The notes under the pieces were generated by a model that saw only the letters and a list, made by a program, of their open reading frames with translations, was not told where the DNA came from and made no database searches. This document shows positions 6,494 through 54,676 of a DNA stretch of 64,000 nt, in pieces. Where the stretch lies: the NCBI RefSeq assembly GCF_000027125.1, contig NC_017626.1; one strand, 5' to 3'. Position 1 is the first letter of the stretch. Each line of letters opens with the position of its first letter. Position numbers and translations under genes: made by a program. This stretch comes from Escherichia coli 042. Its GTDB lineage: Bacteria > Pseudomonadota > Gammaproteobacteria > Enterobacterales > Enterobacteriaceae.

Positions 6494-6938
6494 GAAAACC
6501 CAGTCCTTGCAAAGATGAAGTCGAAATGCGCGATGACACACTACTGAAAGCGGAAGGACGAGTAAAGTTGCAATTAAAAGGAAATGTTATGGATAAGGAT
6601 CGTTAGGGTATTCATTTTCATTTAAAGATATTCTTGCGCTTTAATTACAAACCGCACCGGTGTTGGTGGCGTCAAAATCGCCGAGGCGTTCCCTGAAGGC
6701 CGGGGCAGCCCACATGGATGTGGGCTGAGGGCGCGTTTTACAGGGATGTTACCTCGCGCCCGACCCGGTAGCCGCAAGGGATAAGTCGAGGGCACCGCGC
6801 AGCGGCGATTTTGTTCGCCAGAGCCCGGGGGTGCAGGGGGCGGCGGCGATTGGCCGCCCCCTGCGCGCTCCCTGCGCCAGTGACTATATGTGGCTTAACA
6901 CATCAAGGAGCGCAACAGGAAGATGAATCAATATATTT

Positions 6939-13928: not shown

Positions 13929-13959
13929 AAAAATGCCAGCCGATCGGGCTGGCATTTTG
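13929..13959. terminator. Bidirectional hairpin terminator between convergent macB and cspD
   Basis: aaaatgccagcc-gatcg-ggctggcatttt: perfect 7-bp GC stem flanked by A-run and T-run. Confidence 0.75.
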
Positions 13960-32720: not shown

Positions 32721-32747
32721 AAAAAGCGCCTGCGGGCGCTTTTTTTG
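32721..32747 (+). terminator. Rho-independent terminator of serS
   Basis: aaaaagcgcc-tgcg-ggcgct followed by ttttttt; perfect 6-bp GC stem. Confidence 0.85.
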
Positions 32748-40803: not shown

Positions 40804-40840
40804 GGAATAAAAAAGCGGCAACTCAAAAAAGTTGCCGCTT
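40804..40840 (-). terminator. Rho-independent terminator of pflA
   Basis: Stem agcggcaac/gttgccgct (40814-40822 and 40831-40839) with A-runs on the plus strand (T-runs on the minus strand), 11 bp after the pflA stop. Confidence 0.8.
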
Positions 40841-52505: not shown

Positions 52506-54179
52506 ATGACTGAATCTTTTGCTCAACTCTTTGAAGAGTCCTTAAAAGAAATCGAAACCCGCCCGGGTTCTATCGTTCGTGGCGTTGTTGTTGCTATCGA
52601 CAAAGACGTAGTACTGGTTGACGCTGGTCTGAAATCTGAGTCCGCCATCCCGGCTGAGCAGTTCAAAAACGCCCAGGGCGAGCTGGAAATCCAGGTAGGT
52701 GACGAAGTTGACGTTGCTCTGGACGCAGTAGAAGACGGCTTCGGTGAAACTCTGCTGTCCCGTGAGAAAGCTAAACGTCACGAAGCCTGGATCACGCTGG
52801 AAAAAGCTTACGAAGATGCTGAAACTGTTACCGGTGTTATCAACGGCAAAGTTAAGGGCGGCTTCACTGTTGAGCTGAACGGTATTCGTGCGTTCCTGCC
52901 AGGTTCTCTGGTAGACGTTCGTCCGGTGCGTGACACTCTGCACCTGGAAGGCAAAGAGCTTGAATTCAAAGTAATCAAGCTGGATCAGAAGCGCAACAAC
53001 GTTGTTGTTTCTCGTCGTGCCGTTATCGAATCCGAAAACAGCGCAGAGCGCGATCAGCTGCTGGAAAACCTGCAGGAAGGCATGGAAGTTAAAGGTATCG
53101 TTAAGAACCTCACTGACTACGGTGCATTCGTTGATCTGGGCGGCGTTGACGGCCTGCTGCACATCACTGATATGGCCTGGAAACGCGTTAAGCATCCGAG
53201 CGAAATCGTCAACGTGGGCGACGAAATCACTGTTAAAGTGCTGAAGTTCGACCGCGAACGTACCCGTGTATCCTTGGGCCTGAAACAGCTGGGCGAAGAT
53301 CCGTGGGTAGCTATCGCTAAACGTTATCCGGAAGGTACCAAACTGACTGGTCGCGTGACCAACCTGACCGACTACGGCTGCTTCGTTGAAATCGAAGAAG
53401 GCGTTGAAGGCCTGGTACACGTTTCCGAAATGGATTGGACCAACAAAAACATCCACCCGTCCAAAGTTGTTAACGTTGGCGATGTAGTGGAAGTTATGGT
53501 TCTGGATATCGACGAAGAACGTCGTCGTATCTCCCTGGGTCTGAAACAGTGCAAAGCTAACCCGTGGCAGCAGTTTGCGGAAACCCACAACAAGGGTGAC
53601 CGTGTTGAAGGTAAAATCAAGTCTATCACTGACTTCGGTATCTTCATCGGCCTGGACGGCGGCATCGACGGCCTGGTTCACCTGTCTGACATCTCCTGGA
53701 ACGTTGCAGGCGAAGAAGCAGTTCGTGAATACAAAAAAGGCGACGAAATCGCTGCAGTTGTTCTGCAGGTTGACGCAGAACGTGAACGTATCTCCCTGGG
53801 CGTTAAACAGCTCGCAGAAGATCCGTTCAACAACTGGGTTGCTCTGAACAAGAAAGGCGCTATCGTAACCGGTAAAGTAACTGCAGTTGACGCTAAAGGC
53901 GCAACCGTAGAACTGGCTGACGGCGTTGAAGGTTACCTGCGTGCTTCTGAAGCATCCCGTGACCGCGTTGAAGACGCTACCCTGGTTCTGAGCGTTGGCG
54001 ACGAAGTTGAAGCTAAATTCACCGGCGTTGATCGTAAAAACCGCGCAATCAGCCTGTCTGTTCGTGCGAAAGACGAAGCTGACGAGAAAGATGCAATCGC
54101 AACTGTTAACAAACAGGAAGATGCAAACTTCTCCAACAACGCAATGGCTGAAGCTTTCAAAGCAGCTAAAGGCGAGTAA
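52506..54179 (+). CDS. rpsA: 30S ribosomal protein S1
   Basis: 557 aa [53 protein letters not shown]...; six S1 domains. Confidence 0.97.
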
Positions 54180-54186
54180 TTCTCTG

Positions 54187-54215
54187 ACTCTTCGGGATTT
54201 TTATTCCGAAGTTTG
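54187..54215 (+). terminator. Probable terminator/attenuator after rpsA
   Basis: Stem cttcgg/ccgaag (54190-54195 and 54205-54210) with a T-rich loop, followed by tttgttg. Confidence 0.45.
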
Positions 54216-54338
54216 TTGAGTTTACTTGACAGATTGCAGGTTTCGTCCTGTAATCAAGCACTAAGGGCGGCTACGGCCGCCCTTAATCAATGCAGCAACA
54301 GCAGCCGCTTAATTTGCCTTTAAGGAACCGGAGGAATC

Positions 54339-54623
54339 ATGACCAAGTCAGAATTGATAGAAAGACTTGCCACCCAGCAATCGCACATTCCCGCCAAGAC
54401 GGTTGAAGATGCAGTAAAAGAGATGCTGGAGCATATGGCCTCGACTCTTGCGCAGGGCGAGCGTATTGAAATCCGCGGTTTCGGCAGTTTCTCTTTGCAC
54501 TACCGCGCACCACGTACCGGACGTAATCCGAAGACTGGCGATAAAGTAGAACTGGAAGGAAAATACGTTCCTCACTTTAAACCAGGTAAAGAACTGCGCG
54601 ATCGCGCCAATATTTACGGTTAA
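54339..54623 (+). CDS. ihfB: Integration host factor beta subunit
   Basis: 94 aa [94 protein letters not shown]. Confidence 0.97.
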
Positions 54624-54649
54624 GTTTTTACTCAAACTTGAACGCGAGA

Positions 54650-54676
54650 AAAGCACCTGTCGGGTGCTTTTTTCAT
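54650..54676 (+). terminator. Rho-independent terminator of ihfB
   Basis: aagcacc-tgtcg-ggtgctt followed by ttttttc. Confidence 0.8.

Follow-up and report, generated by a model that had tools for sequence, protein, structure and literature searches.

A single stem-loop in the spacer between rpsA and ihfB of Escherichia coli 042 probably serves both of its neighbours, as a leaky terminator that is independent of Rho and protects the 3' end of rpsA mRNA, and as the 5'-terminal stem-loop of the mRNA made from ihfBp, the promoter proximal to ihfB. IHF is a global nucleoid protein whose subunits are produced from separate operons within translation-machinery genes, with IhfB in excess over IhfA. 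RefSeq annotates nothing in the rpsA-ihfB spacer, and public tables show the 3' end at the hairpin only as a 'novel TTS' or an 'orphan'. We found no paper dissecting the site; the operon literature of 1984-1996 (Pedersen 1984, Weglenska 1996, Aviv 1994) may describe the terminator.

The window analyzed here is a stretch of 64,000 nucleotides of contig NC_017626.1, and the features discussed below are collected in Table 1. Published E. coli K-12 coordinates were converted with the MG1655 record, a window position being the NC_000913.3 position minus 909489.

Table 1. Features of the rpsA-ihfB region, in window coordinates
Feature	Position	Strand	Remarks
rpsA CDS (ribosomal protein S1)	52506..54179	+	557-aa ORF; RefSeq rpsA, b0911
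rpsA 3' UTR as set by mapped 3' end	54180..54291	+	four hairpins in series
-35 hexamer of ihfB-proximal promoter (RegulonDB ihfBp, sigma38/sigma70)	54226..54231	+	TTGACA; from sequence
-10 hexamer of ihfBp	54249..54254	+	TGTAAT; C at 54248; 17-bp spacer; 7-nt discriminator CAAGCAC
ihfBp transcription start	54262..54263	+	T54262 in SMRT-Cappable-seq; T54262 or A54263 in Cappable-seq
rpsA-ihfB hairpin	54262..54285	+	10-bp stem, UACG tetraloop; G+C core 54265-54271 / 54276-54282
Weak U-tract UUAAUCAAU	54283..54291	+	first three bases also pair in extended stem
Dominant wild-type RNA 3' end	54288 (MG1655 963777)	+	Term-seq, SMRT-Cappable-seq, SEnd-seq
RNase II-mutant 3' end, taken as primary	54291 (963780)	+	9 nt past G+C core
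ihfB CDS	54339..54623	+	SD GGAGG at 54330-54334
Canonical ihfB terminator	54646..54675	+	scan match; tail -4.33; ihfBp transcript end 964164

The hairpin and its fold

The original prediction described a perfect 10-bp stem closed by a 4-nt loop, about 80 bp after the rpsA stop and about 55 bp before ihfB, and the sequence bears this out: TAAGGGCGGC-TACG-GCCGCCCTTA is read at 54262-54285, 82 nt 3' of the rpsA stop and 53 nt 5' of the ihfB ATG. Folded as RNA, the hairpin reaches -20.1 kcal/mol (z = -5.1), which none of 200 dinucleotide shuffles equaled. Its loop, C(UACG)G, is a UNCG-type tetraloop, and the seven G-C pairs of its core provide the stable stem expected of an intrinsic terminator. 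The hairpin is kept in the minimum free energy and centroid folds of both the 54180-54291 and the 54262-54350 RNAs. The window holds seven perfect 10-bp hairpins with loops of 3-8 nt, where first-order Markov simulations predict 0.49 +/- 0.9, an excess of about 14-fold. Of 5426 complete E. coli genomes, 5425 carry the 321 bases around the hairpin at 99% identity or more, with a median of one copy per genome. The analysis supports the view that this is a genuine RNA-level element and not a chance palindrome.

Several familiar identities were considered for the hairpin and rejected. It is not a REP/BIME or other dispersed repeat, being single copy by the genome survey (a median of one place per genome in 5425 genomes), and its G+C core pattern occurs once in the window. 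No Rfam family matched at its gathering score; the best overlapping match, to PhrS, scored 16.8 bits where 37 is the gathering score, no better than chance. Origin by insertion with target-site duplication was likewise discarded: flanking repeats are present in E. coli (AATCAAGCA/AATCAATGCA) and in Pectobacterium (AACGGTAG on both sides), and in none of 69 spacers did such repeats reach p <= 0.05 (median p 0.80). RNase III needs roughly two helical turns, and the 10-bp stem is far too short to be a site for it. Involvement of ProQ was dismissed as well, ihfB levels being unchanged in an EHEC proQ mutant.

Further perfect 10-bp hairpins of the window lie at 6835-6862, 13931-13957, 32721-32744 and 40813-40840. 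The one at 32721-32744 (AAAAAGCGCC-TGCG-GGCGCTTTTT) resembles a canonical bidirectional terminator.

The 3' end of rpsA

A simple scan calls no terminator at the hairpin, in agreement with the original prediction that no T-run follows it. The E. coli U-tract has four U in nine positions, and the tail that follows the G+C core, TTAATCAAT, scores -2.02 on a d'Aubenton-Carafa/TransTermHP-type scale, short of the usual cut of -2.5. Transcripts nevertheless end here in three independent data sets that share the same position, the rpsA RNA finishing ...GCCGCCCUUAAUC, 3 nt beyond the stem. Term-seq (Adams et al. 2021, PMC7815308) places the end at MG1655 963777(+), 51 nt 5' of the ihfB ATG, with 9925 and 5221 reads in two growth conditions. 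This is the only 3' end in the Term-seq list within 200 nt upstream of ihfB; it is classed there as 'orphan' and has an intrinsic-terminator score of 14.4 on the scale of Chen et al., for which the threshold is 3.0 (PMC7815308). A Rho-dependent end was rejected, as the Rho score of 1.34 is not significant, with and without bicyclomycin, and marks the end as Rho-independent.

SMRT-Cappable-seq (Yan et al. 2018, PMC6131387), in which 963777 is typed 'novelTTS', shows how many transcripts stop. Among reads that start at 961720, 109 end at 963777, 67 pass it and 9 end within 50 bp, while among those that start at 961861, 38 end and 15 pass; both starts are rpsA promoters (PMC6131387). By these counts about 60-70% of rpsA transcripts stop at the hairpin and about 30-40% continue into ihfB. 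SEnd-seq of RNase mutants (PMC10667835) provides the third data set: 963777 accounts for 57% of local ends in the wild type versus 2.6% in the mutant, and the RNase II table pairs 963777 as 'stop' with 963780 as 'start', a trim of 3 nt. The same table includes the classic terminator ends of ompC, ompT and eda (PMC10667835), and 963777 is absent from the PNPase long-range trimming list of that study. The start/stop pairing points to U54291 as the primary end. At 9 nt past the G+C core it falls within the 7-9 nt after the stem that are canonical for intrinsic termination.

The three 3'-end data sets, Rho-independence and the score of 14.4 together indicate that the hairpin acts as a terminator that is leaky and has a weak U-tract. 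To call it non-canonical, as had been done at the outset, was fair in view of the tail score, but to read this as no terminator was not. We infer that the rpsA 3' end arises by termination rather than by processing.

A rival account holds that the hairpin is purely a processing or stability barrier: no termination takes place, and 3'->5' exonucleases digest cut or longer rpsA-ihfB RNA until they stall at the stem, which yields 54291 and 54288. [quoted passage not shown] The corresponding 'start', however, lies just 3 nt downstream, in a class of RNase II nibbling that canonical terminators share, and the position is missing among the PNPase long-range trimming sites. The canonical spacing between core and primary end and a high intrinsic score with no Rho signal also speak against a barrier alone.

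The tails of orthologous hairpins bear on both readings. Yersiniaceae, Hafniaceae, Pectobacteriaceae and Morganellaceae have conserved hairpins without a U-tract, as the barrier account would have it, and in most Enterobacterales outside the Escherichia group the tails have a median score of -1.5, with none of ten at or below -2.5. Termination therefore cannot be the conserved function everywhere. In the other genera of the Escherichia group, on the opposite side, better U-tracts stand behind the same stem (TTGTTTAAG or TTGTTCAAT, scoring -2.5 to -3.0); the tails of this group, that of E. coli included, are weak but real. Vibrio, Kangiella and Halopseudomonas, which have long spacers, carry canonical terminators with tails of -4.6 to -5.3. 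On balance we regard a pure barrier as a less probable explanation of the E. coli end, and leaky termination as the better one.

Another hairpin of the rpsA 3' UTR, H1 (CTTCGGGAT...ATTCCGAAG, 54190-54211), lies 10 nt after the rpsA stop and is followed by TTTGTT at 54212-54217. The scan calls it terminator-like, with a tail of -3.39 that is better than that of the end-forming hairpin. It was nonetheless rejected as the real rpsA terminator, for the Term-seq list gives no 3' end there. Relatives carry different stems at the H1 position, CTTCGGTCTGA/TCAGCCGAAG in Pseudocitrobacter and CCTTTGTGC/GCACAAAGG in Citrobacter, and this comparison of sequences suggests that structure is conserved at H1 too. 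The 3' UTR as a whole (54180-54291) folds into four consecutive hairpins at -50.2 kcal/mol (z = -8.0), with the ihfB promoter embedded in them.

The ihfB promoter and its start site

A simple scan rejects ihfBp because its -10 hexamer has G at position 2. Among sigma38 promoters, it is reported that only this one and one other have a recognizable -35 (RegulonDB), which fits the TTGACA site. Cappable-seq (Ettwiller et al. 2016, PMC4782308) maps its start to U00096.2 962975 with a score of 364.9 and an enrichment of 7.6, on par with the main rpsA start (318.6); conversion from these older coordinates leaves one base of uncertainty. In SMRT-Cappable-seq the start is 963751, the first base of the stem, and full-length reads run from it to the ihfB terminator at 964164 (PMC6131387). 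With its start at base 1 or 2 of the stem, the monocistronic ihfB mRNA begins with a fully paired hairpin. This mRNA carries the hairpin at +1 to +24 and has zero or one unpaired 5' nucleotide, the geometry of 5' stabilizers, in which about 0-2 nt separate the stem from the 5' end of the primary, triphosphorylated transcript. The coincidence of the start with the first base of the stem had been missed in the original prediction.

A second strong Cappable-seq start lies at 54309-54310 (U00096.2 963022; score 111.7, enrichment 7.6), 29-30 nt before the ihfB ATG. The sequence upstream of it (AACAGCAGCCGC) has no recognizable -10 or -35. This start may be the sigma38 promoter listed by EcoCyc as ihfBp2. 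It is downstream of the hairpin, and ihfB mRNA made from it lacks the 5' hairpin.

An inverted repeat, GATTGCAGG-N6-CCTGTAATC, at 54232-54255 occupies the spacer of ihfBp and extends over the -10. It is kept across the Escherichia group and forms a perfect 10-bp stem in Citrobacter. The repeat could be an operator overlapping the promoter or a hairpin, H2, of the rpsA 3' UTR, variation being too low to discriminate between the two.

Conservation across gammaproteobacteria

Loci of ihfB from 80 species were retrieved by way of the protein, so that their choice was blind to the hairpin, and nearly all of them keep the synteny of rpsA and ihfB. Across 75 gammaproteobacterial spacers the best local hairpin is almost always strong, with folding energies usually between -14 and -25 kcal/mol; in nearly every spacer, no more than one of 30 shuffles of that spacer matches its stability. 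The stem sequence changes wholly between genera while pairing is maintained: GGGCGGC in Escherichia gives way to CCGGGCGAG in Pantoea, AGAATGAGCAAC in Pectobacterium, TGGATAACACA in Photorhabdus and GGAAGGGCA in Pseudoalteromonas. Loops of the orthologous hairpins are often UNCG or GNRA.

Covariation was assessed in a register-fixed alignment of the inner seven pairs and the tetraloop from 25 orthologues. All seven core pairs show compensatory changes, with 69 double changes against 18.4 +/- 3.3 in shuffles, and the covariation score is 1.13 compared with 0.15-0.24 for slid partners. The alignment was chosen by structure, which makes its 100% pairing circular; it is the substitution pattern and the per-spacer shuffles that are informative. 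In a strand-neutral test, the sense strand folds better than the antisense strand in 54 of 71 distinct spacers, the antisense in 16 (Wilcoxon p = 4e-6), and G.U pairs number 55 in sense and 20 in antisense. Covariation and the bias toward the sense strand identify the conserved object as a sense RNA structure and not a DNA operator. Conservation and associated transcript ends had been named as the check on the element, and the outcome is strongly positive on both, in the 75 spacers and in the 3' ends at 54288/54291 and the start at 54262/54263.

These results also bear on whether the palindrome is a DNA operator through which a dimeric regulator acts on the ihfB promoter, for example in autoregulation. 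A perfect palindrome does adjoin a promoter here, and a one-mismatch match to the IHF consensus at 54252-54264 covers the -10 and the start. Autoregulation of ihfB by IHF is said to have been reported by Aviv et al. in 1994. The operator reading is opposed by stems that are exchanged between genera with their pairing kept, by UNCG or GNRA tetraloops, and by G.U pairs and folding energies that favor the sense strand. The hairpin, at +1 to +24, lies outside the promoter, and one-mismatch IHF matches in general occur at the chance rate (66 versus 54 +/- 7 expected). We consider an operator very unlikely, and the earlier proposal of a protein-binding palindrome within the ihfB promoter fails on the same grounds, the hairpin being downstream of the -10 and its stems swapped with a sense-strand bias. 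What has been conserved is best described as an RNA hairpin.

An IHF site over the transcription start was rejected as a separate candidate, given the chance rate of such matches. AATCAA motifs occur on both sides of the hairpin, at 54252-54264 and 54284-54296; both the IHF match and the repeats are at chance level.

Evolution of the spacer

In most Enterobacterales the rpsA-ihfB spacer is only 60-90 nt long and the hairpin begins 0-16 nt after the rpsA stop. Only a group comprising Escherichia, Citrobacter, Pseudocitrobacter, Kluyvera, Pseudescherichia and Superficieibacter has 50-110 nt more between stop and hairpin, a segment that carries TTGACA-17-TGTAAT. Across 10 genera of the Escherichia group, neither the -35, the -10 nor the distance from promoter to stem varies, and indels are absent. 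Six further loci (L082-L087), retrieved through the IhfB T21A sequence and probably from Salmonella, have the same invariant promoter at the same distance from the stem. The position of the hairpin directly 3' of the rpsA stop in most Enterobacterales indicates that the hairpin is older than the promoter that fires into it.

Different arrangements are seen elsewhere. In Enterobacterales outside the Escherichia group (L016, L018-L026, L030-L032 and L041), a conserved (T)GTAACGGTAGTT(T/A)AG comes immediately after a tail-less hairpin, at 20-60 nt upstream of ihfB. The hairpin of Photobacterium, Salinivibrio and Grimontia (L034-L039) is followed by GGTTATACTATTGAGAAACATACTAAA with a perfect TATACT -10. 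Both downstream motifs are candidate ihfB promoters 3' of the hairpin, the E. coli promoter being 5' of it; the candidate -10 elements are TGTAAC/TAGTTT in Enterobacterales and TATACT in Vibrionaceae. The locus of Enterobacter sp. Ag1 (L003, about 402-470) is without TTGACA/TGTAAT and has instead a promoter-like TTGTAT-17-TATAAA that ends 4 nt before the same hairpin. Judged from these hexamers, a start at the foot of the stem in this strain is a possible independent origin of the same arrangement.

A proposed dual role

The mapped ends suggest the following course of events. Polymerase arriving from the rpsA promoters would be released in about 60-70% of cases around U54291, 9 nt past the G+C core. 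RNase II would then remove 3 nt to C54288, after which the abundant rpsA mRNA would have its 3' end shielded by the stable stem. The other 30-40% would pass the hairpin and give rpsA-ihfB co-transcripts. From inside the rpsA 3' UTR, ihfBp would initiate at base 1 or 2 of this stem, and its 5'-paired mRNA would undergo slower 5'-end-dependent decay, chiefly in stationary phase, when ihfBp supplies most ihfB mRNA.

The last step draws on what is known of mRNA decay. Both RppH and RNase E need single-stranded 5' termini, which accounts for 5' stabilization of the ompA/papA type, and no fewer than two unpaired 5' nucleotides are needed by RppH (PMC10667835). A 5'-terminal stem should therefore slow the decay of ihfB mRNA. 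RppH-dependent mRNAs make up only about 10% of E. coli mRNAs. Among the rows listed in seven supplementary files of the same study, including a short list of 666 RppH-processed positions, no entry begins with 96375 (PMC10667835). In the Salmonella OrfSwap study, the stationary-phase mRNA lifetime was 4.93 min for ihfB versus 2.19 min for ihfA, and a hybrid ihfB-UTR::ihfA mRNA lasted 3.38 min in stationary phase (PMC8942017). The OrfSwap exchanges both UTRs and the promoter, and stabilization of ihfB mRNA by the hairpin is accordingly our inference: from its 5' geometry, the hairpin would be expected to lengthen the life of the ihfBp transcript. The early suggestion of an RNA-processing or stabilizing element holds in part, the hairpin being a genuine RNA element and a stabilizing role plausible.

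The promoter that fires into the hairpin raises a further alternative, a promoter-proximal attenuator whose main role is to stop ihfBp transcripts at about +30 as an RNA of about 30 nt and so to set ihfB output, with the effect on rpsA secondary. Since about 60% of upstream transcripts stop at the hairpin, one may reason, any polymerase crossing it should be affected. The Cappable-seq scores of ihfBp and rpsA are similar (364.9 and 318.6), but full-length SMRT reads number 32 versus 337; this disparity is confounded, as the size selection of SMRT-Cappable-seq disfavors a 414-nt RNA, and the two methods are separate experiments. The RNA of about 30 nt is a predicted product, and the hairpin predates the promoter, standing directly after the rpsA stop in most Enterobacterales. 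Compared with the dual role, attenuation as the chief function is in our judgment a distant prospect.

An extension of the dual role that includes attenuation is conceivable, if rather speculative. Polymerases from ihfBp would meet the approximately 60% terminator at +27 to +30, where a sizeable fraction would release a triphosphorylated RNA of about 30 nt and the survivors would keep the decay-resistant, cap-like 5' stem. Attenuation responsive to modulators of weak terminators (NusA/NusG, ppGpp/DksA, retained sigma38/sigma70) would then set ihfB output. If this were true, one stem-loop would couple rpsA termination, ihfB attenuation and ihfB mRNA stabilization.

Comparison with known systems

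The hairpin resembles the intrinsic and leaky intra-operon terminators of E. coli in its G+C-rich stem, its stable tetraloop and a 3' end 9 nt past the core stem. Like intrinsic terminators it is insensitive to bicyclomycin and is nibbled by 3 nt by RNase II, and like leaky intra-operon terminators it is read through in part, which determines how strongly the upstream gene is expressed relative to the downstream one. Unlike typical intrinsic terminators, it has an interrupted U-tract (-2.02, compared with -4.33 for the neighboring ihfB terminator), and the next transcription unit has its start site inside the rpsA terminator.

As the 5' end of ihfBp mRNA, the hairpin has the 5'-terminal stem-loop geometry of the stabilizing stem-loops of ompA and papA mRNAs (Emory, Bouvet, Arnold, Bricker and Belasco, cited in PMC3997798). 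The ihfB stem-loop differs from these in also terminating the upstream gene, and in that a second, hairpin-less ihfB mRNA is made from the downstream start. The hairpin is also similar to the SRPS stems that block exonucleases (PMC10667835): an intercistronic stem defines a 3' end between a high upstream and a lower downstream cistron, and the hairpin is entered as an RNase II stop in that study. The trim of only 3 nt indicates that the stem marks a primary end, unlike the long-range decay end point of SRPS. REP elements differ from the hairpin in being dispersed REP/BIME sequences, the hairpin being single copy. Both kinds of element, terminator and 5' stabilizer, are textbook; a transcription start that coincides with base 1 of the terminator hairpin of the gene before it is mildly unusual.

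Implications

At the hairpin lies the physical switch between rpsA, which is expressed very strongly, and ihfB, and the hairpin sets how much rpsA transcription enters ihfB during growth. In stationary phase it probably protects the 5' end of the promoter-proximal ihfB mRNA. Such protection would be a concrete, testable cause of the higher stability of ihfB-UTR mRNA in Salmonella. Simple scans for a hairpin plus T-run chose H1 (54190-54211) and missed the hairpin that is actually used. More generally, a transcription start can lie within the terminator of the preceding gene.
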